Below, in pieces: positions 11 through 59,765 of a DNA stretch of 59,900 nucleotides. Every line of letters starts with the position of its first letter. Positions within the stretch are counted from its first letter, which is position 1. Made by a program: the position numbers and the translations under genes. A model generated the notes under the pieces. It saw only the letters and a program-made list of their open reading frames with translations, was not told the origin of the DNA and searched no databases. Origin of the DNA: an uncultured Azospirillum sp. (GTDB lineage: Bacteria; Pseudomonadota; Alphaproteobacteria; Rickettsiales; UBA3002); contig CAZZCK010000005.1 in NCBI GenBank assembly GCA_964652475.1, positions 1,658-61,557 of the forward strand, in the 5' to 3' direction.

Positions 11-1474
11 CTAAAACTTCCCCTCGAGCCACTTGGCTACCGGTTCCCACATTTGGGTGCGGGCGTTTTTGCCGACGACCATGCTGACATGGCCGCATTC
101 GGGGTAAATGACACTACAGCGTTTGATGAGTTTGGTGAGTGGCTCGGCGCAGCCGCGCGGCACGATCGCATCCTTGGTGGGGATGACGGCTAACGTAGGG
201 CAGGTGATTTCAGCGGGCTCAATCCACCGCCGGCCAATTTTCCATTGATGTTTGGCGAGTATATTCCCCTGCGGCCAATCCACAAAGCATTCCTCGGCGA
301 CTTTGTTGGCGAGCGGCACGCCGTCATTCACCCATTGCTCGACGGCGAGGAAGTGGTTTTTCTCCGCCTCGGAGAGGAACGGGTAGCGGCTGAATTTTTC
401 CTGCACGCGCCAGGGGTCGATGAGGTGAAACACGGTTTGCGTCACCACCGGCGGCACAGGGCATTGGGTGCTGATCCATTGCCGCAGCATGGTTTGGGTG
501 GCTGGCGCAAGCAGCACGGTGGGTGTATCCTTGGCCGTAAAATCCCACGGGGTGGCGAGCAGTATCAGCGCATCCACCTCTTTGGCGGCGAGCTGCGCCA
601 TGGCGGTGGTGAAAATACCGCCCATGCAGTAGCCGAGTAGGGCGATTGGCCCGTCATGCTGCTCGCGTAAGGCATGCAGCGCATCGAGCGCATAAAAGCT
701 GATATAATCCGCCATCGCGAAATCGCATTCATCGGCATTGGGGCTGCCCCAATCGAGAATCAGGGGGCGAAATCCACGAGACTTCAAGAAATCGACAAAG
801 CTCACCTCGGGGTATAAATCGAGCACGGTCGATTGATTGATGAGTGAGGGCACGCATAGTACGGCCACCGCATCCGTCGCCTCGGGCGCACAATCAAATA
901 GCTGCGCACTGCCGCGGCTCCAAATCACGTCATAGTTTGTTTCGGGGCGTTCGTAGTCGCTCGCCAAATAGGCCTGCATGCCCTGCAAAAAACCCGTGCT
1001 GCGGTTATAGGCCTCGCTGCTAAGGCTACTTAGAAATTCGGGGTTGAAGAAGTCGCTGATGAAGTCAGTAAAATTGAGGCTGTCATCCCGGGCTTGTCCC
1101 GGGATCTCCCACCACAACTTCGTTTCTTTCTCGTCTTTATTGCCATGGAGTGCGTTGCGGGAGATCCCGGCATAAAGCCGGGATGACGACTCATTACGTG
1201 TGCTTGCCGCGCTTTGTGGCTGGCTTTGACTGAAGGCGCTTAGCATTTGCTCGCTGAGTTTTGCCCATGGCTCGCTTGCGCTTTGCCACAGGTTTTGCAA
1301 CTGCTCGCTTGCCTGTTCGAGCGGGCTTTTCGGTCGCATCCAATCGGGCATGAAGGCGGCGAAGCTCGCGCTCCACGGCATCGAGGCGTTCGGCAAGATC
1401 CCCGATTGCATCATCGCGAGCATCAGGTGCATGGGCAGGGCGTCGGGGATGCGCATCATGGGCAGGCTTTCCAA
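11..1474 (-). CDS. phaC: Poly(3-hydroxyalkanoate) synthase PhaC-like alpha/beta hydrolase. This is the main reading frame; the 5' end probably continues in another frame.
   Basis: 487-aa ORF with the lipase-box-like motif GYCMGG (G-x-C-x-G) in an alpha/beta-hydrolase core resembling PHA synthases. It sits divergent to phaR. It carries an in-frame palindromic element at 1081-1188. The track start is a TTG. Confidence 0.8.
   Translation of the reverse strand: MESLPMMRIPDALPMHLMLAMMQSGILPNASMPWSASFAAFMPDWMRPKSPLEQASEQLQNLWQSASEPWAKLSEQMLSAFSQSQPQSAASTRNESSSRLYAGISRNALHGNKDEKETKLWWEIPGQARDDSLNFTDFISDFFNPEFLSSLSSEAYNRSTGFLQGMQAYLASDYERPETNYDVIWSRGSAQLFDCAPEATDAVAVLCVPSLINQSTVLDLYPEVSFVDFLKSRGFRPLILDWGSPNADECDFAMADYISFYALDALHALREQHDGPIALLGYCMGGIFTTAMAQLAAKEVDALILLATPWDFTAKDTPTVLLAPATQTMLRQWISTQCPVPPVVTQTVFHLIDPWRVQEKFSRYPFLSEAEKNHFLAVEQWVNDGVPLANKVAEECFVDWPQGNILAKHQWKIGRRWIEPAEITCPTLAVIPTKDAIVPRGCAEPLTKLIKRCSVIYPECGHVSMVVGKNARTQMWEPVAKWLEGKF
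1081..1188. repeat. Family A nested palindromic element (tgtcatcccggg...cccgggatgac), translated in frame within phaC
   Basis: Terminal inverted repeats tgtcatcccgg / ccgggatgac and inner inverted repeats ccgggatctccc / gggagatcccgg. Similar copies lie at 47905-48023, 49209-49291 and 50334-50420. Confidence 0.85.
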
Positions 1475-5448: not shown

Positions 5449-8313
5449 ATGGCGCAGCTGTTCAGCATTCCCCCCGGATACGATATGGCGCGCGTGGCGG
5501 CCGAGCACGTGCTTGCGTCGCATACGAGCGAGGATCTCGCCCATACCATCATGCTGCTGCCCACCCGGCGCAGTATCGCAACGCTGCGCGATGCCTTTGC
5601 CACCGCACTGAATGGCCGCGCGAGCCTGTTGCCGCGCATGATTGCCCTGGGCGATCTCGCACTGGCGTTGCCCAGCCTTCTGCCCGCCCGGCACCGCCAC
5701 TGGCTTGCCGTCATTCCGCCCGCCATGGGCCGTATGGAGCACCGCTATCTGCTGGCACGTTACGCGGCAGTATTCGAGCGCGCGCGCATGGGGCAATGCA
5801 CCGCGCACTATGCACTGAGCCTGGCCGATAGCTTACTCACCTTGCAAGAGGATGCCATCCGTTATGGGGCCGACCTCAACCCGGCGCGTATCCGCGGCCT
5901 CATGTATGGCGATCACGCCAAGCATTGGCAGGATGGCCTCGAGTTTCTGGCGATCCTGAGCGAACATTGGCCCACGATCGAGAAAGAAACCGGCAAAATA
6001 ACGCAGGCCGCGCATGAGCGGCTGCTCATCCATGGGTTGGCGAATCATTGGCGCGATCACCCACCCGCGCATGCGGTCTATGCGCTGGGCTCAACCGCTA
6101 GCCAGCCTGCAACCGCGCAGTTGCTCACGGTGATTGCTGCCATGCCACGCGGTCATGTCATTCTCACCGGGTTTGATGGAAGCATCGATGCGGATGAATG
6201 GCAGGCCATTGCGCCAGGGCACCCGCTTTATTATCCGGCGCAATGGTTGCAACATCAGTCGCTAACGCCGGATGCGGTGGTGCCGCTGGCCGAGCCACAT
6301 CCCCGGGCAAGCCTTTGGCGTGAGTCATTGGCGTCACCGCATCGTATGGCGCAGTGGCGCAGCCAAGCATTGCCGGATTATCAGCATCTACGGCTGATTC
6401 CCTGCATTCATCCCGAGGAGGAGGCCCGCCTGGTCAGCCTCATCATCCGCGAAGGGCTCGAACATCCGGCACGTACGGTCGCGCTCATCACCCCGGATGA
6501 GGGCTTCATGGCCCAGGTCAGCGCCCATCTCAAGCGTTATGGCGTGATTGCCGATCGCTTAAATGCGGGCAGTCTGGCCACCACTCTCGTTGGTAGTCTC
6601 TGGCTAGCCTTGGTGCGCGTGATCGCCACCCCTTCGGATAATCTCGCCGTGCGCCATTTGCTCAATCATTCCGAGCTTGGCCTTGATGCTGGCCTGCTGC
6701 AAGCGCTCGAGCCGGGCTGGCACGGGGTTAGCCGCCGTCGTCCTGGCCAATTGCCCGGGCATGATCCATCGCTCACTGCGCACGCGCAATATGCTCAGCT
6801 CGTCGCATGGCTCAAGCAGCTACTTTCCTTGCAACGTCGCGAATATTTGGCAAGCGCGTGGATCGAGCAGCTTCAGGGATTACTTCATCGTTGGGATTCT
6901 GGCGATCGCACCACCAGCGCAGCCATTACCGAAACAATTGCCCAGATGGAAGCGGCGGATGGGCTGGGGCCGCTCGCCATCGAGGAGTTCACGGCATTAT
7001 TGCTCGAGCATTTTGCGGCACCCACGCGCATGAGTGGTCTTCGCACCCATCCGCGCCTACGCATGCTGACCCCGGTTGAGGCGCGCCTCGCACCGCTCGA
7101 TCGGGTGATTCTCGCGCGGATGGATGATCATCACTGGCCGGGCCATGCGCCAGCAAATCCGTGGCTCAATCAGGCGGCGCAACAGGCGATTGGTCTCCCC
7201 AGCCATGCCGAGCATATCAGCCTGATGGCGCATGATCTGCTGCTACTCGGCAGCGCGCCGGAGGTATTTTGCACCTATGCCAGGCGCGATAGCAGTGGCC
7301 CAACCACCCGCTCGCGCTTCCTCGAGCGGCTGGTGACGCTACTGGCCAGCCATGGGGTTGACGAAGCGGCCATCGCCGCGCCATCCCTACTCGATTGGGC
7401 GAACCGGCAATATGCATGCGATACGCTCGCGCCCGAGCCACCCATCGCGCCGCGCCCACCTGCCGATCTTCGCCCGCGCCGCTTACCGGCAAGCCAGATC
7501 GACCGCTTATTCACCGATCCGTTCAGCATCTATGCGCGTTATGTGCTCGGTTTAAAGCCATTAAGGGCCATCAACGCCGAGCCCGAAGCCAGCGATTTTG
7601 GCAGCCTGACTCACCGCGCGATCGAGGCGTTGACGCATTATTGGAACGCGCATGAGCGCCCGGCCGATGACGCAACCCTTGAAGCTATTGCCGCTGAGGC
7701 CTTGCGCCATGTTGAAGACCGTAGCGCGATTGATCTGTTCTGGCGCACGCGGCTGATGGGGGGCTTACGTTATATCAATGGGCTTGAGAATGAACGCCGC
7801 CGCGCCGAGCCGCTGAGCGTGGCCGCCGAACAGCTGGTCGAGGCGACACTGACGCTACCGGGCGGTGAAACCATCACGCTGCATGGCACCATCGACCGTA
7901 TCGAGGAATCGGCAAGTCGGGGCCGGGTGGTGATCGACCATAAAACCGGTAAAATCCCGAGTGAAAACGAAATCCTCGAGGGCAGGGCGCTGCAGCTGAT
8001 GGTGTATGCCATCCTTCTGAATGCGCACAATAGCACGGTAACGGGTGACATCGCATCCCCTCTGGTCAACGCTGCAGCACCCGTCAGCGCTATCGAGTAT
8101 TGGCAACTGCCTAAGCTAGGCGAGGAGGGGATGATCCGCAGCACCGCGATCCATGAGCGGATCGACGTGCTCGAGGAAAAGCTGAAAACCGCGTTGCTCC
8201 AGATGCTTGACCCCACGACACCATTCTTGGCCCGCCCGGTGCCAAGCAGCAACGACGAACGCTATGGCAATGATTACGACGGCATCAGCCGCTATGATGA
8301 GTGGGCGGGGTGA
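5449..8313 (+). CDS. addB: Double-strand break repair protein AddB (alphaproteobacterial type)
   Basis: 954 aa. The N-terminus FSIPPG...LLPTRRSIATLRDAF and a C-terminal PD-(D/E)xK-like nuclease block (IDRIEE...VIDHKTGK...QLMVYA) support the call. Confidence 0.82.
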   Translation: MAQLFSIPPGYDMARVAAEHVLASHTSEDLAHTIMLLPTRRSIATLRDAFATALNGRASLLPRMIALGDLALALPSLLPARHRHWLAVIPPAMGRMEHRYLLARYAAVFERARMGQCTAHYALSLADSLLTLQEDAIRYGADLNPARIRGLMYGDHAKHWQDGLEFLAILSEHWPTIEKETGKITQAAHERLLIHGLANHWRDHPPAHAVYALGSTASQPATAQLLTVIAAMPRGHVILTGFDGSIDADEWQAIAPGHPLYYPAQWLQHQSLTPDAVVPLAEPHPRASLWRESLASPHRMAQWRSQALPDYQHLRLIPCIHPEEEARLVSLIIREGLEHPARTVALITPDEGFMAQVSAHLKRYGVIADRLNAGSLATTLVGSLWLALVRVIATPSDNLAVRHLLNHSELGLDAGLLQALEPGWHGVSRRRPGQLPGHDPSLTAHAQYAQLVAWLKQLLSLQRREYLASAWIEQLQGLLHRWDSGDRTTSAAITETIAQMEAADGLGPLAIEEFTALLLEHFAAPTRMSGLRTHPRLRMLTPVEARLAPLDRVILARMDDHHWPGHAPANPWLNQAAQQAIGLPSHAEHISLMAHDLLLLGSAPEVFCTYARRDSSGPTTRSRFLERLVTLLASHGVDEAAIAAPSLLDWANRQYACDTLAPEPPIAPRPPADLRPRRLPASQIDRLFTDPFSIYARYVLGLKPLRAINAEPEASDFGSLTHRAIEALTHYWNAHERPADDATLEAIAAEALRHVEDRSAIDLFWRTRLMGGLRYINGLENERRRAEPLSVAAEQLVEATLTLPGGETITLHGTIDRIEESASRGRVVIDHKTGKIPSENEILEGRALQLMVYAILLNAHNSTVTGDIASPLVNAAAPVSAIEYWQLPKLGEEGMIRSTAIHERIDVLEEKLKTALLQMLDPTTPFLARPVPSSNDERYGNDYDGISRYDEWAG

Positions 8314-23304: not shown

Positions 23305-24411
23305 ATGGAAATCACTGACCTCTTGATGGCGACGCATAAAAATAAAGCGTCGGATCTTCATATCTCGACTAAAAACCCGCCCATCATGCGGGTGAACGGC
23401 GATATGCTGCCGCTTGATATGCCCGCCCTTGATGCCGAGCAGGTAAAAAAAATGCTGTTCTCGCTGATGACCGAACAGCAGCGCAGTGACTATGAGCGCG
23501 ACCTCGAACTCGATTTCTCGATATCGTTTGGCAATGATTTACGTTTCCGGGTCAACACGTTTAACACGATTTTTGGCGCAGCCGCAGTGTTTCGCTCGAT
23601 TCCCACCAAAATCATGACCCTCGATGCACTGGGCGCGCCGGAAGTGTTGAAGCGCCTGTGCCATTTGCATAAGGGCCTGATTTTGGTCACCGGCCCCACT
23701 GGCTCGGGCAAATCGACGACGCTTGCGGCGATGGTCGATTACATCAATCAGACCTTCAATAAACATATCCTGACTGTTGAGGATCCGGTCGAATTTGTGC
23801 ATACGCCCAAGCGCTCGCTGATTAATCAGCGCGAAGTCGGTAGCTCGACCAAATCCTTTGCCAAAGCCTTAAAATCCGCCCTGCGCGAAGATCCGGACGT
23901 GATTCTGGTGGGCGAGTTACGCGATCTTGAAACCATTCAATTGGCAATGACCGCGGCGGAAACCGGGCATTTGGTGCTGGGCACGCTGCATACCAGTTCG
24001 GCAGCAAAAACCGTCGACCGGATTATCGATGTCTTCCCGTCCGACGATAAGGAAATGGTGCGGGCGATGCTCTCGCTCTCGCTTGAGGCAGTGGTAACGC
24101 AAGCGTTACTCAAACGGGCAGATGGCAAGGGGCGCGTGGCCGCGCATGAAATTATGCTTGGCTCGCCGGCGATTCGTAACCTCATCCGTGAAGCGAAGGT
24201 GCCGCAAATCACCTCGATGATCCAGATGGGTAGCAAAATGGGCATGGTGCTGATGCGCGACTCACTCAACAAGCTATTCGAGACCGGCGTTATTTCGGCG
24301 GAATCCTTGCGCGAACTGCTCGTCACCAGCGCGCAGTCGGAAGAGGAAACAGCGGCAATCAATGCGGCCGTCGCCAAGCGCCCTGCCACCACGCCCTCCA
24401 GCGCATTCTAG
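23305..24411 (+). CDS. pilT: Type IV pilus retraction ATPase PilT
   Basis: Walker A GPTGSGKSTT, ILVGELRD, GHLVLGTLHT and AIRNLIRE motifs, 368 aa. Confidence 0.93.
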   Translation: MEITDLLMATHKNKASDLHISTKNPPIMRVNGDMLPLDMPALDAEQVKKMLFSLMTEQQRSDYERDLELDFSISFGNDLRFRVNTFNTIFGAAAVFRSIPTKIMTLDALGAPEVLKRLCHLHKGLILVTGPTGSGKSTTLAAMVDYINQTFNKHILTVEDPVEFVHTPKRSLINQREVGSSTKSFAKALKSALREDPDVILVGELRDLETIQLAMTAAETGHLVLGTLHTSSAAKTVDRIIDVFPSDDKEMVRAMLSLSLEAVVTQALLKRADGKGRVAAHEIMLGSPAIRNLIREAKVPQITSMIQMGSKMGMVLMRDSLNKLFETGVISAESLRELLVTSAQSEEETAAINAAVAKRPATTPSSAF

Positions 24412-24418
24412 GGGATTT

Positions 24419-25546
24419 ATGGCATATCCGATCCACGAATTACTGACGCAGATGGTGAGGCAACAAGCCTCTGATCTATACCTGACCTATGGCTGCCCAC
24501 CCAAGCTTCGGGTGAGCGACGCGATTATCGATATTGGCAACGAACCGCTTACCGATGTGCATCTCGAAGCATTGATCAACGAAATTTTAACGCCCGACCA
24601 ACAGGATGAATTTCGTTCGACCAATGAGTTGAATTTGGCCCTGAATGTGACGATGAATGCACGATTTCGTGCCAATATTTTTCGTCAGCAGGGACATGAC
24701 GGGGTAGTCATTCGGCGAATTCAGCAGCAAATCCCAACCATCGAATCACTTGGGTTGCCACCAATTTATGGCGAACTGGCGATGGCCAAACGCGGGTTGA
24801 TTTTGGTTTCCGGCCAGACCGGATCGGGCAAATCGACCTCGCTCGCGGCCATGGTGGGGCACCGCAATCAGCACGGTAGCGGGCATATTATTACGGTCGA
24901 AGACCCGATCGAATTTGTGCATCAGCACCAGCAATGCATTGTCTCGCAGCGCGATGTCGGGCTCGATACCTATTCCTATGCGCTGGCGCTTAAAAATGCG
25001 CTGCGCCAACGCCCTGACTTGGTGGTCATTGGCGAAGTGCGTGACCGCGAAGTGATGGAGCAGGCGATTTATTTTGCCGAGACCGGACATCTCTGCATTG
25101 CCACGATTCATGCGAATAATGCTAGCCAAACCATCGAGCGCGTGTTGAATTTTTTCCCGGAAGAGCGCCATCACCAAGTGCTACTCAACCTCTCACTCAA
25201 TTTACAGGCAACCGTATCGCAACGCATGGTGAGCACGCTCAACGGTGAGCGCTGCCTGGCGCTTGAGATCATGCTCAACCGCGGGATCATTAAGCAATAT
25301 ATCGAGCAAGGGAAGATACGCCATTTACGCGAGATGATTGAAAAAGGTACCAGCGAAGGCATGCAAACGTTCGATCAGCATTTATTTTTGCTCTATGAGC
25401 AGCGCATCATCAGCGAAGAAGTAGCCTTGGCGGAAGCCGATAGTGCATCCAATCTGCGGCTGATGATCCAGAATAAGCGCACGATTGATCGCGGCATCGA
25501 GGTTACCTGGCGCGACGCCAAACCCGCCAGCGAAACGGATTTTTAA
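24419..25546 (+). CDS. pilU: PilT-family ATPase, PilU-like paralogue
   Basis: Walker A GQTGSGKSTS, VVIGEVRD and GHLCIATIHA. It lies in tandem directly after pilT. Confidence 0.85.
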   Translation: MAYPIHELLTQMVRQQASDLYLTYGCPPKLRVSDAIIDIGNEPLTDVHLEALINEILTPDQQDEFRSTNELNLALNVTMNARFRANIFRQQGHDGVVIRRIQQQIPTIESLGLPPIYGELAMAKRGLILVSGQTGSGKSTSLAAMVGHRNQHGSGHIITVEDPIEFVHQHQQCIVSQRDVGLDTYSYALALKNALRQRPDLVVIGEVRDREVMEQAIYFAETGHLCIATIHANNASQTIERVLNFFPEERHHQVLLNLSLNLQATVSQRMVSTLNGERCLALEIMLNRGIIKQYIEQGKIRHLREMIEKGTSEGMQTFDQHLFLLYEQRIISEEVALAEADSASNLRLMIQNKRTIDRGIEVTWRDAKPASETDF

Positions 25547-40568: not shown

Positions 40569-40714
40569 GCATATCGCAGCATCAAAAAAACTGTTGCGGA
40601 TTTTCGCTATCGTTATGGCGTTTCATTATGATATGCGGCTCTCGGCTTTGTCATTCCCACCTCGTCACGTAACGGTTTGAATCCGCTGGCAATCGATTGC
40701 ACAGCCCATCTATT

Positions 40715-40782
40715 TGTCATTCCCGCGAAGGCGGGAATCCACTTGTTAACTCAAGGAGATTCCCGCCTTCGCGGGAATGACA
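40715..40782. repeat. Family B nested palindromic element (tgtcattcccgc...gcgggaatgaca)
   Basis: tgtcattcccgcgaaggcgggaatcc ... ggagattcccgccttcgcgggaatgaca. A solo terminus tgtcattccc lies at 40649-40658. Confidence 0.85.
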
Positions 40783-40938
40783 AATGGCAAGGTTTTTATT
40801 CGAATCTCGTATATTTCACTCTAGGGCAGCGGCCAAGTACGATTGGGTGTTTTCACCAGCCCAGGCTTCGCTCTAACGAGCTTCGCCGGGCATTGCTTCG
40901 CCCAAGGCGATTTTGCTTCACAAAATCGGGGCGAAGCG

Positions 40939-41016
40939 TGGGGCGAGAGACGGGGGTCGAACCCGCAACCTCCGGTACCACAAACCGGCGCTCTAACCAG
41001 TTGAGCTACTCCCGCC
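40939..41016 (-). tRNA. tRNA-His (anticodon GUG) with encoded G-1
   Basis: The reverse complement reads g-gcgggagtagctcaactggttagagc...ttGTGgt...ggttcgacccccgtctctcgcc-cca. The extra 5' G pairs with C73. Confidence 0.9.
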
Positions 41017-43025: not shown

Positions 43026-43107
43026 GTGAGTGGTGCGTTGTGAGTGGTGGGTAGTGATACGCCCTCGACTCCTTCTTACCACTCACTACTCACGACCCAC
43101 CACTCAC
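43026..43107. repeat. Intergenic hairpin with arms built from tandem gtgagtggtg-like units (glnB-glnA spacer)
   Basis: gtgagtggtgcgttgtgagtggtgggtagtga ... taccactcactactcacgacccaccactcac. Confidence 0.8.
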
Positions 43108-44619: not shown

Positions 44620-44681
44620 CTTGGGCATCGTGTACGGCAGTGTTAACCTATACTCGTTTGGAATAAAAACCTAACAACCTT

Positions 44682-44750
44682 GTCATTCCCGCCTACGCGG
44701 GAATGACAAAGCTGAGAGAGTGTACAAAAATTAAACGAAATGAGTATAAA
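44682..44750 (+). repeat. Family B hairpin plus a conserved ~40-nt tail, directly upstream of the pilin gene
   Basis: tgtcattcccgcctacgcgggaatgaca + aagctgagagagtgtacaaaaattaaacgaaatgagtataa. It is nearly identical to 51803-51869. Confidence 0.85.
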
Positions 44751-47854: not shown

Positions 47855-47904
47855 GCGTTAGCCTCACTGGGGCCCATGGCAAGGTGGCCACCTGAAGTTC
47901 GGCA

Positions 47905-48023
47905 TGTCATCCCGGGCTTGTCCCGGGATCTCCCGCCACATGCGATCATCTTTATTTGCTCTAAAAGAATTACCGCAAGCCGATGGAGATCCCGGTATCG
48001 CCCAAAAGCGAACCGGGATGACA
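47905..48023. repeat. Family A nested palindromic element (intergenic, gpsA-ileS spacer)
   Basis: tgtcatcccgggcttgtcccgggatctccc ... ggagatcccggtatcgcccaaaagcgaaccgggatgaca. Confidence 0.88.
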
Positions 48024-48056
48024 GTTTTACGCTGCATGCGGCATGTCCCAAGCGCA

Positions 48057-51000
48057 TCACGCCACCTTGCTCAGGCCAATGACAAATTGCGCGCCGTCCA
48101 GCTCCTGCGTGATTTTGCTTGCTGCACCCGCGCTGCCTTCACCGATGGATATTGCGAGCGTTTGCTCCTTAATATAATCCCCATGGGCGGCAATTGCGGC
48201 TTTGAAATCCGCTGGCACATCCACCGCAAGGGTGATGCGGTCGCCCACGTTGAAGCCTGCATCCTTACGCGCTTGCTGAATCATGCGCACCAAATCCCGC
48301 GCCCGGCCTTCGGCCTCAAGCTCGGGCGTGATGGTGAGGTCGAGGATGACGAGCGCATCGTTGGTGGAAAGAGGTGCCGCTGAATTTTTATACTCAGGCT
48401 TCGGCTCGAGCAAAATCGTATATTCACTCGCCAGCAGTTTCTCGCCAGCGATTTCGACACCGCCATCCGCAGTGCGGGTCCACTCACCTTTTTTCGATGC
48501 TGGTAAAATCTGTTTCATTTTCTCGGGTAGACGTTTGCCCAGCACTTGCGAATTGATTTGGAGTTTGTAGTCTGCATACTTGGTGATTTCTTCGCTAGAC
48601 GACCTAAAGTTTTTTACATTTACTTCGTCTCGAATAATTTCAGAGCACAAAGATTCAAGCGCCATGGAGTGCATGTTGGTTTCCTGTATAACTGTAAGGC
48701 ACAACAGAGGCTGACGAGATCTTATTTTTGCGCTATTCCGAATCGACAAGGATACCGAACATATGTCCCTTGCTCGATCCATTGCCCACATCATTTGGTC
48801 TGGGCGCATATTTTTAAATATAAAACCATCATTTTGCTGAGGGAAGGTATCCTCTGTTGCAATACCGCTCACATCTGCAAAATCCTGCAGATGGACGCTT
48901 GATGCTTCACCATTCAGGCCACGGTAAACCGCCTCGCTCACAAACGGCAGCAGCGGTGCGGAGGCAATGCACATCAGGTTCAGCACCGTGAACAGCGTGT
49001 CATAGGCGGCTTGTTTATCCGGCGTCATTGCCTCGCCCCAAAAGCGGGGGCGGCTACGGCGGATGTACCAGTTATTCAGCACATCAAAAAACTGGGTGAT
49101 GGCCTCGGTCGCACCGGGCGTATCATACACATCCATGCTCGCTTCGACCTTTAGCACCGCGGCTTTGCATTTGGCGAGGATGTAGCGATCGAGCATGTTG
49201 GTCAGCCCGTCATCCCGGCCTTGTGCCGGGATCCCCTGATGATTGGCTTCATACTCGCTGCGGGAGATCCCGGGACGAGCCCGGGATGACAGCAAATTCT
49301 TCGCCTTCACCCCATCCGCATTTGCATAAAGCGTGAAGAAGTTAAACGCGCTCCACATCGGTTTAATGTTCAGGCGCACCACATCGCGGATGAATTTGCC
49401 GTCGGGATCCACGCGCAAATCCGCCCCGCGCATGACGGGCGATGCCAGCATCATCCAGCGCAGCGCATCGGCGCCATATTGGTCCATCACCTCTTTCGGG
49501 TCGCGGTAATTTTTGAGGCGCTTGCTGTATTTCAGGCCGGTTTCTTCATCAATCACCACGCCGTGGCAGATGACATTTTTGAACGGTGCCTTGCCAAACA
49601 ATGCCGCCGAAAGCACTTGCAGTGTGTAGAACCACCCACGCGTTTGCGCGATATATTCGGTGATAAAATCGGCGGGGAAATTTTCCTCGAACCATTGCTT
49701 GTTCTCGAATGGGTAATGCACCTGCGCGTAAGGCATACTGCCGCTCTCAAACCAGCAATCGAACACATCCTCGATGCGGTGATACTCCTCGCCATCAATT
49801 TTCAGCACCACGGAATCAATGAACGGGCGGTGGAGGTCTGCGACCTCTTGCCCACTTAATTTTTCAATTTCATCTATTGAACCACACACATGGATTTTAC
49901 CACTCGCCGATTTCCAAATCGGAATCGGTGTGCCCCAGAAGCGGTTGCGCGAAATGCTCCAATCCGGCGCAGACTCAATCCCCTTGCCCATTTGGCCGCT
50001 TTGGATGTGGTCGGGGATCCAGTTGATGCTGAGGTTATTCGCCGCCATGGTTGCTTTGATTTTTTGCACGTTCACATACCAGCTGCTCATCGCGCGGTAG
50101 ATCAATGGCGTATCGGTGCGCCAGCAATGCGGGTAGTTGTGCTTGTAGGGTTCGTCCTTCACCAGCTTGCCATTGGCCTTCAGCCAACGCACAATGCGCA
50201 TATTGGCAAGGCCATATTTTGCGATATCCTTCGCGGCGATGTGCTGGGCTTTATCTTCCTCGCTCACCACAATATCCGCTTCCGCAATGCGCGTATCAGG
50301 CACCACCACAAGGCCCGCGAGTTTGAGTAAGCCGTCATCCCGGTTTGCTTCAGCAATACCGGGATCTCCCGCAGGAAGAGCTCCTTCTGAGGGGGATCCC
50401 GGGACAAGCCCGGGATGACAGTTCCAAGCAATATCATAAATATCGGCGGTGAATTTGCCTTTTTCATCGACCGGCACCATCACCTCGATGCCATTATCGG
50501 CGCAGCATTTCTGGTCCGCCTCACCAAATCCGGGCGCCATGTGCACAATGCCCGTGCCATCGCCATCGGTCACGAATTCCGAACCATCGAGCACACGGAA
50601 AGCTTTTTGCTGTTTGCGAATATCGTCGTCGAAATAGGGAAAGAGCGGTTCGTAGGTGAGGTTGATTATTGATTTAATATCACAGCCGTACTGGATGTAT
50701 GATTTTTCCAAAGCATCCCAGTCCTGTGAACTAATGGATTTAGCAATAGGAGGACCAACACGAACAGCTGCATCAAACTGCTTATTTGCGTAAGCAGATG
50801 AGCAAATGAAAACGTCACCATTTCTGCTAAGGACATACGAGTATTCGACGGAGTCTTTTCCAACCGCCAAAGCCAAGTTGCTTGGCAAGGTCCATGGTGT
50901 CGTCGTCCATGCAATGAGGTAATAATTCTCAGCATCGGGTGCGCCGCTCGCACGAAGTTCTTTCGCGCTGTCGGCAGTGAGCTTAAACTTCACATACGCC

Positions 51001-51659
51001 GCTTTATCCTCGCGTTCGCGGGTCGCGTTATCGATGCGGGTCTCGAAGTTCGATACGGGTGACTCCGCCGCCCAGCTATAGGGCATCACGCGCATGGATT
51101 CGTAGATGAGGCCGTTGTTATAAAGCTCCTTAAAGGCCCACAGGCAGCTTTCCATGTAGGGCGTATCCATGGTTTTGTAGTCGTTTTTAAAATCCACCCA
51201 GCGGCCCTGGCGGGTGACATAATATTCCCACTCGCTGGTGTATTTCATCACGCTGGTGCGGCAATACTCGTTAAATTTATCGATGCCGTAGCCCTGAATG
51301 GCGGCGCGGCCGCTGATGCCCAGTTCCTTCTCCGCGCCCATTTCGGCAGGCAAGCCGTGGCAATCCCAGCCGAAGCGGCGCTCGACGCGTGACCCCTTCA
51401 TGGTGTGGTAGCGGGCGATCGCGTCCTTCACGTAACCTGTCAGCAAATGGCCGTAATGCGGCAAGCCGTTGGCAAACGGCGGGCCATCATAGAACACATA
51501 AGCGTTGCTGGTGCCATCCGCCTTTTTTTCGGGGCGGTTATTCACCGATTTCTCGAAGGTTTTGTTCTCGCGCCAGAACTGAAGAATCCCCTCCTCCAGT
51601 GCGGCGAAGTTGGGGTTGGCATCGAGTTCGGGGTAGTGTTTCGTGGTCATGGCGCTCAA
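48057..51659 (-). CDS. ileS: Isoleucine--tRNA ligase, type 2, carrying two in-frame repeat insertions
   Basis: 1200 aa with HIGH-type PHYGHLL, WTTTPWTLPSN (editing domain), YPHCWR and KMSKS-like KYSKRL. It is longer than usual because of the inserts at 49209-49291 and 50334-50420. Confidence 0.96.
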   Translation of the reverse strand: MSAMTTKHYPELDANPNFAALEEGILQFWRENKTFEKSVNNRPEKKADGTSNAYVFYDGPPFANGLPHYGHLLTGYVKDAIARYHTMKGSRVERRFGWDCHGLPAEMGAEKELGISGRAAIQGYGIDKFNEYCRTSVMKYTSEWEYYVTRQGRWVDFKNDYKTMDTPYMESCLWAFKELYNNGLIYESMRVMPYSWAAESPVSNFETRIDNATREREDKAAYVKFKLTADSAKELRASGAPDAENYYLIAWTTTPWTLPSNLALAVGKDSVEYSYVLSRNGDVFICSSAYANKQFDAAVRVGPPIAKSISSQDWDALEKSYIQYGCDIKSIINLTYEPLFPYFDDDIRKQQKAFRVLDGSEFVTDGDGTGIVHMAPGFGEADQKCCADNGIEVMVPVDEKGKFTADIYDIAWNCHPGLVPGSPSEGALPAGDPGIAEANRDDGLLKLAGLVVVPDTRIAEADIVVSEEDKAQHIAAKDIAKYGLANMRIVRWLKANGKLVKDEPYKHNYPHCWRTDTPLIYRAMSSWYVNVQKIKATMAANNLSINWIPDHIQSGQMGKGIESAPDWSISRNRFWGTPIPIWKSASGKIHVCGSIDEIEKLSGQEVADLHRPFIDSVVLKIDGEEYHRIEDVFDCWFESGSMPYAQVHYPFENKQWFEENFPADFITEYIAQTRGWFYTLQVLSAALFGKAPFKNVICHGVVIDEETGLKYSKRLKNYRDPKEVMDQYGADALRWMMLASPVMRGADLRVDPDGKFIRDVVRLNIKPMWSAFNFFTLYANADGVKAKNLLSSRARPGISRSEYEANHQGIPAQGRDDGLTNMLDRYILAKCKAAVLKVEASMDVYDTPGATEAITQFFDVLNNWYIRRSRPRFWGEAMTPDKQAAYDTLFTVLNLMCIASAPLLPFVSEAVYRGLNGEASSVHLQDFADVSGIATEDTFPQQNDGFIFKNMRPDQMMWAMDRARDICSVSLSIRNSAKIRSRQPLLCLTVIQETNMHSMALESLCSEIIRDEVNVKNFRSSSEEITKYADYKLQINSQVLGKRLPEKMKQILPASKKGEWTRTADGGVEIAGEKLLASEYTILLEPKPEYKNSAAPLSTNDALVILDLTITPELEAEGRARDLVRMIQQARKDAGFNVGDRITLAVDVPADFKAAIAAHGDYIKEQTLAISIGEGSAGAASKITQELDGAQFVIGLSKVA
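49209..49291. repeat. Family A palindromic element translated in frame within ileS
   Basis: gtcatcccggccttgtgccgggatcccc ... gggagatcccgggacgagcccgggatgaca. It reads LSSRARPGISRSEYEANHQGIPAQGRDDG on the minus strand. Confidence 0.88.
50334..50420. repeat. Family A palindromic element translated in frame within ileS
   Basis: gtcatcccggtttgcttcagcaataccgggatctccc ... gggggatcccgggacaagcccgggatgaca. It reads NCHPGLVPGSPSEGALPAGDPGIAEANRDDG on the minus strand. Confidence 0.88.
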
Positions 51660-51760
51660 TCAAAAAATGCGTGAGCGAGGGTTGTAACCAACCATGGCAG
51701 AAAAATCAAAGCGTTTGGGATGAAATGTTATAATCGATTCAAATAAAGATCTTACCATTT

Positions 51761-51870
51761 TGTCATTCCCGCGTAGGCGGGAATCTACTTCAATAAAGAA
51801 AGGAGATTCCCGCCTACGCGGGAATGACAAAGCTGAGAGAGGTGTACAAAAATTAAATGAAATGAGTATA
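51761..51870 (+). repeat. Family B nested palindromic element plus the conserved tail shared with 44682-44750
   Basis: tgtcattcccgcgtaggcgggaatc ... ggagattcccgcctacgcgggaatgaca + aagctgagagaggtgtacaaaaattaaatgaaatgagtataat. Confidence 0.88.
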
Positions 51871-56153: not shown

Positions 56154-56180
56154 GTCATCCCGGGATACACCCGGGATGAC
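56154..56180. repeat. Solo family A hairpin just upstream of purB
   Basis: gtcatcccggg-atacac-ccgggatgac. Confidence 0.8.
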
Positions 56181-57556: not shown

Positions 57557-57653
57557 GTCATTGCGAGCAACGCGAAGCAATCCAGCAAGAAATAATACTT
57601 GCGCCAAAGGCCAGCTGGATTGCTTCGGCCTTTAAGAGGGCCTCGCAATGACG
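57557..57653. repeat. Family C nested palindromic element (gtcattgcgag...ctcgcaatgac)
   Basis: 12-bp terminal inverted repeats cgtcattgcgag / ctcgcaatgacg and inner inverted repeats gcaatccagc / gctggattgc. Confidence 0.85.
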
Positions 57654-57681: not shown

Positions 57682-57969
57682 ATGAAGCAGCCGGCAGTCT
57701 ATATAATGGCTAGCAAGCGTAACGGAACCCTCTACACGGGCGTTACCAGTAATCTTATCGCCAGAGATTACCAGCATAAGTCTGGCGAAATTGTAGGTTT
57801 TACGAAACGCTATGGATGTAAAATACTCGTATGGTATGAGCTGCATGAAACGATGGAATCCGCTATTCTTCGCGAGAAGCAAATTAAAGGTGGCTCTCGC
57901 AAAAAGAAGCTGTCGCTGATTGAAAAAGATAATCCAGAGTGGCGAGATTTATCCGAGGATTTATTTTAG
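57682..57969 (+). CDS. Small GIY-YIG nuclease family protein
   Basis: 95 aa with AVYIMASKRNGTLYTGVTSNLIARDYQHK (GIY-YIG pattern) and REKQIKG. Confidence 0.82.
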   Translation: MKQPAVYIMASKRNGTLYTGVTSNLIARDYQHKSGEIVGFTKRYGCKILVWYELHETMESAILREKQIKGGSRKKKLSLIEKDNPEWRDLSEDLF

Positions 57970-58005
57970 CTGGATTGCTTCGGCCCAAAGGCCTCGCAAT
58001 GACGG
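57969..58005. repeat. Duplicated right half of the family C element
   Basis: gctggattgcttcggcccaaaggcctcgcaatgacgg repeats 57613-57655 (gctggattgcttcggcctttaagagggcctcgcaatgacgg). Confidence 0.85.
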
Positions 58006-59682: not shown

Positions 59683-59765
59683 TGTCACCCCGTCGAATGA
59701 CGGGGTCTCGCGCACTGCATGAGAAAAGCAACGTGCACGGATGCCGTCATACGACGGCATGACAG
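59683..59765. repeat. Family D palindromic element (tgtcaccccgtc...gacggcatgaca)
   Basis: Two hairpins, caccccgtc-gaatgac-ggggt and gccgtc-atac-gacggc, bounded by tgtca...tgaca. Confidence 0.75.

Follow-up and report, generated by a model that had tools for sequence, protein, structure and literature searches.

The isoleucyl-tRNA synthetase (IleRS) gene ileS of an uncultured alphaproteobacterium (assembly GCA_964652475.1, contig CAZZCK010000005.1) was found to contain two copies of a palindromic repeat, here named family A, which are inserted in frame and leave the gene uninterrupted. The analysed stretch of 59,900 nucleotides (nt), called the window in its whole length, comes from an uncultured lineage with a genome of roughly 2 Mb. 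Judged from its sequence, family A is a member of the superfamily of CGTC-tagged repetitive extragenic palindromes (REPs) and corresponds to the Ssn-related motifs (SRMs); this identity of the element and its tolerated in-frame insertion in ileS are regarded as highly probable.

The ileS gene and its two inserts

The gene, the inserts and their hairpins were located as follows.

48057..51659, minus strand: ileS, type 2 isoleucyl-tRNA synthetase, 1200 amino acids (aa), open reading frame (ORF) intact with both inserts
50334..50420, minus strand: insert 1 at site 1 (aa 413-443), a pair of GTCAT-tagged hairpins placed head-to-head, within the C-terminal part of the CP1 editing domain
50392-50420, minus strand: insert 1, hairpin matching the strict SRM pattern
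50334-50365, plus strand: insert 1, partner hairpin with a longer loop
49209..49291, minus strand: insert 2 at site 2, aa ~790-818, head-to-head hairpin dimer in the loop from the last helix of the catalytic body to the first helix of the anticodon-binding domain
49263-49291, minus strand: insert 2, hairpin matching the strict SRM pattern
49209-49232, plus strand: insert 2, partner hairpin

The ORF of 1200 codons was found to run without a stop, and the minus-strand translations of insert 1, NCHPGLVPGSPSEGALPAGDPGIAEANRDDG (aa 413-443), and of insert 2, LSSRARPGISRSEYEANHQGIPAQGRDDG (aa 790-818), with IleRS sequence resuming on both sides, were exactly those of the initial annotation, which had described the two elements from the sequence alone. 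The inserts were 86 and 82 nt long and encoded 29-31 aa. As described there, the element was entered in different frames and left in a common one (CGG GAT GAC GGN); the entry frames were found to lie one base apart because of these two lengths. Its openness in more than one frame was also confirmed, yet the number of open frames per element was 2.72 against 2.71 in shuffles, a value explained by composition alone, and the element lengths were found without bias to multiples of three; selection for multi-frame openness was rejected on these two grounds.

The best matches of the protein in the PDB were eukaryotic cytoplasmic IleRS and bacterial IleRS2 (E 1e-175 to 1e-199), whereas type 1 IleRS scored only ~1e-64, and the window IleRS is therefore of type 2, in agreement with the initial annotation. 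The ortholog set consisted of 120 IleRS homologs from uncultured Alphaproteobacteria with 55-76% identity, giving 121 sequences with the query; the exact window protein was not in the searched protein database. The HIGH-like and KMSKS-like residues were found to be invariant across this alignment, and the identity of the window ileS to that of the ortholog P0001 was 84%, 88% and 57% at codon positions 1, 2 and 3, respectively. Since positions 1 and 2 are conserved over position 3 and the catalytic motifs are invariant, the gene is, on this comparison, functional despite both inserts and subject to purifying selection.

Orthologs, empty sites and decay of the inserts

The modal ortholog was found to contain ..IYDLPDLKLQGLVVV.. 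at site 1, where the query has IYDIAW followed by 31 aa and LLKLAGLVVV. At site 2 the modal ortholog contained ..ANADGVKAKEITTSENMLDRYILAK.., the query was ~27 residues longer, and the insert was absent from 95 of the 121 sequences. The net gains in the window IleRS were about 32 aa at site 1 and about 27 aa at site 2. P0007 and P0011, the closest uninserted relatives, were empty at both sites in their DNA. Both inserts are, on this alignment, clean in-frame gains, because most orthologs and the empty-site DNA of P0007 and P0011 are without these residues. The alignment against orthologs had been suggested in the initial annotation; against the 120 IleRS orthologs the indels were clean, and repeat-free orthologs were found to carry no homologous residues at either site.

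The ortholog P0001 belongs to an independent metagenome-assembled genome (MAG; GCA_033763655.1), with a syntenic ileS-gpsA context and an ileS 76% identical to that of the window. Its site 2 was found to contain an orthologous element with the identical nucleotide junction and a recognisably orthologous core that differs by a 6-nt indel. Its site 1 contained only a 13-aa in-frame remnant, with in-frame deletions relative to the window copy, and the ORF was intact in both genomes. Both insertions are therefore older than the split of the two lineages, and the site-1 copy is, by this sequence comparison, decaying in frame in P0001.

An artefact of assembly or annotation, or a pseudogene, is a practically negligible explanation of the inserts. 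No point in its support was found, the site-2 insert recurs at an identical junction in the independent MAG, and the window gene has an intact ORF, conserved catalytic motifs and mostly synonymous substitutions.

The inserts are taken to be translated and present in IleRS because the indels between orthologous copies preserve the frame. Translated inserts would give junction-spanning tryptic peptides of IleRS that include ...IYDIAWNCHPGLVPGSPSEGALPAGDPGIAEANR and ...NLLSSR / ARPGISR / SEYEANHQGIPAQGR. Ribosomal bypassing, or removal of the inserts from the RNA or the protein, would instead leave them untranslated. Bypassed GC-hairpin inserts occur in some yeast mitochondrial genes, and each insert was predicted to fold into a very stable mRNA hairpin (~-51 kcal/mol, z ~-4.2). 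However, all in-gene copies were found to be stop-free and frame-keeping, and the indels between orthologs were multiples of three (6 nt at site 2, in-frame at site 1). An intein or a group I or II intron would moreover be far larger than the inserts, and an Rfam search of the window gave tRNAs only, with no known RNA family at the inserts. Absence of translation is very improbable.

Position of the inserts in the protein

The AlphaFold2 model of IleRS, built on a 97-sequence alignment, had a mean predicted local distance difference test score (pLDDT) of 80. The score fell below 50 in the inserts only, at residues 416-441 of insert 1 and at residues 793-800 and 808-819 of insert 2, the latter between the confident helices 755-782 and 820-843, and such low values are also expected where few aligned sequences have residues. 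Insert 1 was placed by the Thermus editing-domain construct 1wk8, which aligns to query residue 406; after site 1 the full-length structures realign at query residue ~485 (chain residues 374-375 in the eukaryotic structures and 361-362 in 8c8u and 1ile). The model is supportive of both inserts being low-confidence loops between well-folded segments, and the structure mapping suggested in the initial annotation places them in predicted loops.

Family A copies in the window and in relatives

The pattern GTCATCCCGG-N6-10-CCGGGAT was found eight times in the window against 0.01 expected matches, and the repeat family of the initial annotation is accordingly real. Besides the two inserts, the following members were present.

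1082-1187, minus strand: family A copy 3, in frame in a PhaC-like alpha/beta hydrolase, in the variable N-terminal linker of ORF 11..1474 (minus strand, 487 aa)
47905..48022: family A copy, intergenic between ileS and gpsA, with the repeat pattern, terminal inverted repeats and an SRM match
56154..56180: single family A hairpin GTCATCCCGGGATACACCCGGGATGAC upstream of purB, pattern match

The four full copies were found to contain ~32-nt terminal inverted repeats flanking a variable core of 20-50 nt, with a total length of 82-117 nt, and all were inverted hairpin pairs. Three of the four full copies lie in genes (two in ileS and one in the PhaC-like gene), as had been annotated, and the fraction is three of five in the 60-kb window when the single hairpin is counted. 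The PhaC-like orthologs were mostly without the residues of copy 3, and family A copies at the same position were present in P0124 and P0136.

The ileS-gpsA spacer (window 47855-48056) was found to be empty in the relatives L116 (13483) and L119 (4585), in which the ileS stop overlaps the gpsA start. The spacer of L118 (4400-4529) contained a different GTCAY-hairpin doublet, and that of L120 (4254-4434) two other hairpin elements.

A hairpin scan of species-representative genomes gave more than 115 loci, among which the closest DNA was 78-84% identical to the window. An in-frame copy was found in metG of L004, a MAG ~81% identical to the window, and the metG site of the window was empty; another in-frame copy was present in a TrmFO-like gene of L074. 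In L050 a hairpin was found at the position homologous to the single hairpin upstream of purB. The copies in high-GC Sphingomonas, Parvibaculum and Bosea loci appear to be intergenic. The long ORFs that span copies in high-GC Sphingomonas-type loci were rejected as spurious-looking Arg-rich antisense frames, and these copies were treated as intergenic. L030 was likewise rejected as an in-gene copy, because its frame joins a GIY-YIG ORF and a folK-like ORF by read-through. No plasmid-borne relatives were found by blastn in PLSDB.

Hairpin structure and class membership

The family A unit was found to be (T/C)GTC-ATCCCGGG-CTTGT-CCCGGGAT-CTCC, that is, a tag, then a stem of 8 bp with AT at its start, and a 5-nt loop. 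Each element contained two (C/T)GTCAT-tagged hairpins head-to-head, with the stem ATCCCGGN/N'CCGGGAT, a loop of ~5 nt and a short variable core. The eighth stem position was Watson-Crick paired in 27 of 30 distinct non-bait hairpins, with all four pair types, against 9.6 on average and 17 at most in shuffles, and the position inward of it was unpaired. The 8-bp stem is maintained by covariation.

By definition, a CGTC REP has an unpaired CGTC tag (or TGTC/CCTC) and a stem of 8-9 bp with AT at its start, closed by a loop of 4-5 nt and followed by a short tail (Di Nocera, De Gregorio and Rocco 2013, PMC3733652). The SRMs are hairpin-forming repeats of 20-50 nt with an oriented 5' tag, and the single-domain GIY-YIG ssnA homolog, whose gene they flank and often enclose from both sides, is ~94 aa long (cd10448; PMC11893778). 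The SRM search pattern HGTCWYN(0-2)YYVSBRHN(0-5)WNVSBRGN(0-2)RNCYNB (PMC11893778) was found to match the window eight times against 0.3 in 50 dinucleotide shuffles. The matches were one hairpin of each full family A copy and arms of two of the three elements of a second family, family B; the partner hairpins of the family A copies were degenerate and failed the strict pattern.

51759..51841: family B doublet, ~100 nt upstream of the ileS start; its sequence, TGTCATTCCCGCGTAGGCGGGAATC, agrees with the Neisseria NTS / CGTC-1 REP consensus
40713-40785 and 44679-44720: family B units, giving with 51759-51841 two doublets and one singlet in all

The family B sequence TGTCATTCCCGCG(A/T)AGGCGGGAATC was found to fit the Neisseria NTS/dRS3 consensus, and the other family B doublet lies near the tRNA at 40942-41015.

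Conservation of the hairpins at the nucleotide level

Between the ileS genes of the window and P0001, no identical run was longer than the one of 51 nt over the site-2 SRM hairpin, and the third-position identity to P0001 was 87% within the element against 57-64% outside. In PhaC, three orthologs with an unalignable flanking linker share an essentially identical hairpin, and the partner hairpin was found to contain a compensatory C-G to G-C swap in both ileS and PhaC. This conservation exceeds the expectation for a neutral loop and fits either selection on the hairpin or gene conversion among copies or templated repair.

These data bear on exaptation, in which the in-gene hairpins or the encoded loops would have a host function such as Ssn-SRM control, at essential genes, of recombination with incoming single-stranded DNA (ssDNA) or an influence of mRNA structure on ileS expression. 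The 51-nt run, the third-position identity, the persistence of the PhaC hairpin amid unalignable flanks and the compensatory stem changes are consistent with it, as is the modulation of transformation by NTS-Ssn in Neisseria (PMC11893778). However, most orthologs, the nearest included, are without the inserts, and the site-1 copy is decaying in P0001; gene conversion among copies or between arms could also conserve the hairpins, and the orthologous comparisons are two only. A host function is considered unlikely.

As a separate observation, the second-longest identical run between the two ileS genes was 47 nt (codons 458-473, about 50241-50287) and falls in a clade-specific segment, PDTRIAEADIVVSEEDKAQHIAAKD, which is without counterpart in the solved IleRS structures.

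Repeated occupation of the two IleRS loops

At least six extra residues were found at site 1 in 50 of the 121 sequences (~41%) and at site 2 in 26 of them (~21%), and both sites were occupied in 20, against ~11 expected if the sites were independent. The site-1 inserts included several GTCAT-type families (HPERSEGS...SPQND, TPAQAGVH...GLRRND and SREGGNP...RLRGGD) as well as SPLxGE-type repeats. Whole domains of about 150-230 aa were found by Pfam in frame at the site-1 loop in 16 orthologs, at the place of window aa ~412-444 (about 50330-50425). A DUF559/Vsr-like PD-(D/E)xK endonuclease was present in P0009, P0018, P0027, P0029, P0037, P0065, P0085, P0094 and P0114, and a GNAT acetyltransferase in P0039, P0047, P0070, P0092, P0097, P0117 and P0120. 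The DUF559 inserts were bounded by SPLxGE...PPQGGS-type sequences resembling inverted repeats, and short SPLxGE-type inserts were present at site 1 in other orthologs, a distribution that suggests a second mobile element family with miniature derivatives of its own. Occupied and empty states were interleaved on the neighbour-joining tree of IleRS. Site 1 takes inserts of unrelated kinds, and the simplest account is therefore a loop that is permissive in general, coupled with frequent insertion.

The pattern could also arise by targeting, in which a sequence at the two loops is preferred by the elements, or by a nuclease of the homing type, in place of a filtering of random hits by selection. 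Both loops and the ileS-gpsA junction were found to be filled by different hairpin families in scattered branches, and the inserts at site 1 include DUF559 endonuclease domains. The left junction of site 1 (about 50421-50435) was DLPD when empty and DI(P/A)W or DIP(F/L) in many independently inserted alleles, the DI(P/A)W type being common to inserts of different element families. This recurrent junction favours targeting and is not accounted for by a simple insertion model; its origin may lie in convergent change at the base of the loop, in an old lineage of alleles or in the chemistry of insertion. The unrelated inserts of site 1 (GNAT, SPLxGE-type and others) nevertheless fit a permissive loop better, and neither a shared target motif nor a duplication was found. 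Beyond a few codons the flanks track the species phylogeny. Downstream of site 1 the query does not differ from the empty P0007, which leaves no co-conversion tract, and a gene segment spread by homing or co-conversion was rejected on the course of the flanks. Targeted insertion is held to be improbable.

GIY-YIG genes beside the hairpins and the proposed mobilisation

57682..57969, plus strand: Ssn-like single-domain GIY-YIG nuclease gene, 95 aa, Pfam GIY-YIG E 2e-14

This gene was found to be bracketed by a third, GTCAT...ATGAC palindrome family, with a full element at 57558-57651 that has the termini GTCATTGCGAG...CTCGCAATGAC and a right-end half copy at 57970-58004, and a larger inverted repeat (57573-57599 / 57956-57982) spans the gene. 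For the candidate nuclease the nearest solved structure was the UPF0213 protein 1zg2 (E 3.5e-4). In L041 a GIY-YIG ORF (5797-6144) lies exactly between two family A hairpins, which form a 37-nt inverted repeat of 95% complementarity, and in L110 and L030 the GIY-YIG ORFs lie 0-13 nt from a hairpin. The hairpin-associated GIY-YIG ORFs matched Pfam GIY-YIG with E 1e-14 to 1e-17.

A second, more divergent GIY-YIG ORF of 80 aa was found at 2260-2502 on the minus strand (Pfam E 5e-16), beside the tRNA at 2574-2647; no inverted repeat flanking this ORF was detected.

SsnA is a site-specific GIY-YIG nuclease that cleaves ssDNA beside NTS/SRM hairpins, and ssnA is itself SRM-flanked (Chenal et al. 2025, PMC11893778). 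The SRM-ssnA-SRM layout was likened there to an insertion sequence, and a parallel with IS200/IS605 was drawn. By analogy, a mechanism can be proposed for family A. The elements would be non-autonomous palindromic units, similar to MITEs (miniature transposable elements with inverted repeats), landing throughout the genome. Copies in genes would survive where their length is a multiple of three, where they are stop-free in the host frame and where they fall within a tolerant surface loop. The IleRS of the clade would offer two such loops, one in the C-terminal CP1 editing domain and one at the entry to the anticodon-binding domain. Transcription and translation would turn the inserts into two extra disordered IleRS loops of ~32 and ~27 residues, presumably neutral or nearly so, after which a copy would either remain or be eroded by in-frame deletions. 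The hairpins would be kept at the nucleotide level by selection, or by templated repair or gene conversion between copies. As a tentative possibility, the doublets would be mobilised in trans, the hairpin in ssDNA being the substrate of a GIY-YIG single-strand nuclease of the Ssn type. That the SRM-ssn-SRM units are autonomous mobile elements and the doublets their miniature derivatives, with hairpins that are constrained in essential genes and recolonise the same IleRS loops, is a rather doubtful extension.

Movement of the doublets by a Y1/HUH transposase of the IS200/IS605-like kind is a distinctly unlikely alternative, in which the GIY-YIG association would be incidental or have another role. 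REPINs, known from the work of Bertels and Rainey in 2011 and of Nunvar in 2010, are said to be GTAG-tagged inverted doublets of REPs that depend on a Y1 transposase (the REP-associated tyrosine transposase, RAYT) and are essentially extragenic. The inverted tagged pair, the lack of a target-site duplication and the covarying structure of family A match REPINs, and the IS200/IS605 parallel of the Ssn paper (PMC11893778) points the same way. However, no RAYT flanked by CGTC units was found in any species, and the CGTC REPs were concluded to be without a dedicated transposase (PMC3733652). The hairpin-bracketed genes of the examined loci (roughly 0.9 Mb) were GIY-YIG ORFs, and no RAYT gene was seen beside the hairpins, no genome-wide search having been made. 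As in REPINs, the putative mobile unit of family A is an inverted doublet of tagged hairpins without target-site duplication, but its tag is GTCAT and not GTAG, and the bracketed gene encodes a GIY-YIG nuclease and not a Y1 transposase.

Several points weigh against the reading of neutral, Ssn-mobilised inserts as a whole. The Ssn-like gene of the window is flanked by a different hairpin family and not by family A, and Ssn was shown to be a nuclease, not a transposase (PMC11893778). Neither a target-site duplication nor a common target motif was found when filled and empty states were compared at metG, at both ileS sites and at the ileS-gpsA spacer. Neutral insertion followed by drift alone leaves the 51-nt hairpin run, as the longest identity between the two ileS genes, unexplained. 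The presence of the inserts in mRNA and protein is supported indirectly, by the frame-preserving indels between orthologs. The recurrent DI(P/A)W-type junction of site 1 and the alternative source of low pLDDT, both given above, belong with these points.

Relation to known systems

Rickettsia palindromic elements (RPEs), known from the work of Ogata et al. in 2000 and 2002, are reportedly palindromic repeats that have entered unrelated essential genes in frame, are tolerated within surface loops and decay later. The initial annotation had compared family A with them while calling its sequence unrelated-looking. The comparison held for a palindromic repeat in frame within coding genes whose orthologs are without the insert (ileS, PhaC-like, metG and TrmFO-like); the description of the sequence did not, the SRM pattern and the CGTC REP architecture being matched. 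The host differs in that it is not Rickettsia, and the elements are shorter (82-117 nt), RPE-1 being about 100-150 nt long. Peptides of families A, B and C gave no match to any NCBIfam model, RPE models included, in a search with E up to 10, and membership in the curated RPE domain families was rejected on this result. R. conorii RPE-4 and RPE-6 were assigned to the intragenic CGTC REPs (PMC3733652), and family A would be related to them through that class, a link taken from the same paper. A 2024 review regards RPEs as an extreme case of in-frame MITE fusion.

The CGTC REPs predominate in Alphaproteobacteria, are mostly head-to-head dimers and encode 20-30 aa when the dimers are intragenic (PMC3733652). 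An intragenic dimer was listed in the isoleucyl-tRNA synthetase ELI_13550 of Erythrobacter litoralis (residues 467-488), with further dimers in glyS, truB, dnaE2, polA and other genes (PMC3733652 supplement). Family A shares with them the tag, the 8-bp stem starting with AT, the 5-nt loop, the head-to-head dimers, the occurrence mainly in Alphaproteobacteria and the in-gene dimers in housekeeping genes (29-31 aa here). It differs in being a specific sequence (ATCCCGGG stem, CTTGT loop) in an uncultured lineage, and, unlike the Erythrobacter ileS, the window has two dimers in one type 2 ileS, at other sites.

Shared with the NTS/SRM-Ssn system are the fit of the family A and B hairpins to the SRM pattern and the hairpin-bracketed layout of small single-domain GIY-YIG genes. 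In contrast, three of the five family A units lie in genes here, whereas just 2% of NTS are intragenic in N. meningitidis (PMC11893778). That paper mentions neither RPEs, CGTC REPs and coding insertions nor doublets as MITE-like units.

The Coxiella QMITE1 and QMITE2 (PMC5896051) and the intragenic enterobacterial RU and ERIC (PMC2759123) are likewise small non-autonomous repeats that can contribute coding sequence, but they overlap gene ends or create short ORFs and are not internal in-frame inserts of an essential enzyme. A classical MITE, derived from an insertion sequence, has terminal inverted repeats and a target-site duplication. The inverted repeats of family A are clear; no duplication was visible at the metG, ileS and intergenic junctions, but the loop residues adjoining these filled-versus-empty insertion sites have diverged since insertion.

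Other repeats and genes of the window

A palindrome of GTGAGTGGTG-type repeats was found at 43026-43107, just outside glnA, with 30-nt arms of 83% complementarity. The site-2 insert of the P0004 IleRS, VTSDEWQVTSD...VTRHPSP, may share a family with it. A GTCAY-tagged hairpin pair, GTCACCCCGTCGAATGACGGGGT and GTCATGCCGTCGTATGACGGCAT, was present at 59684-59763 near the tRNA at the window end, and one of its hairpins was also found in the relative L116 (20093-20115). Two adjacent paralogous P-loop ATPase genes (23678-23812 and 24798-24932) lie 1120 nt apart and are 76-78% identical over the Walker A region; they are probably PilT/PilU-like.

Implications

Tagged palindromes translated in housekeeping enzymes are already known, in Rickettsia since 2000 and, as CGTC REPs of other Alphaproteobacteria, since 2013, one ileS included. 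Less well described are the repeated inserts in the same two IleRS loops and the nucleotide-level conservation of the hairpins with compensatory stem changes. The link made here, which is in neither PMC3733652 nor PMC11893778, is that Ssn-like genes are bracketed by the same hairpins as the coding inserts. With the hairpins demonstrated in 2025 as binding sites of the Ssn nucleases, the movement of RPE-like coding palindromes becomes a testable question. The IleRS clade is a natural experiment, in which dozens of orthologs contain different short elements or domains in the same loops, and it may be used for mapping the insertion-tolerant sites of class I synthetases and for distinguishing selection from gene conversion in the upkeep of the in-gene hairpins.

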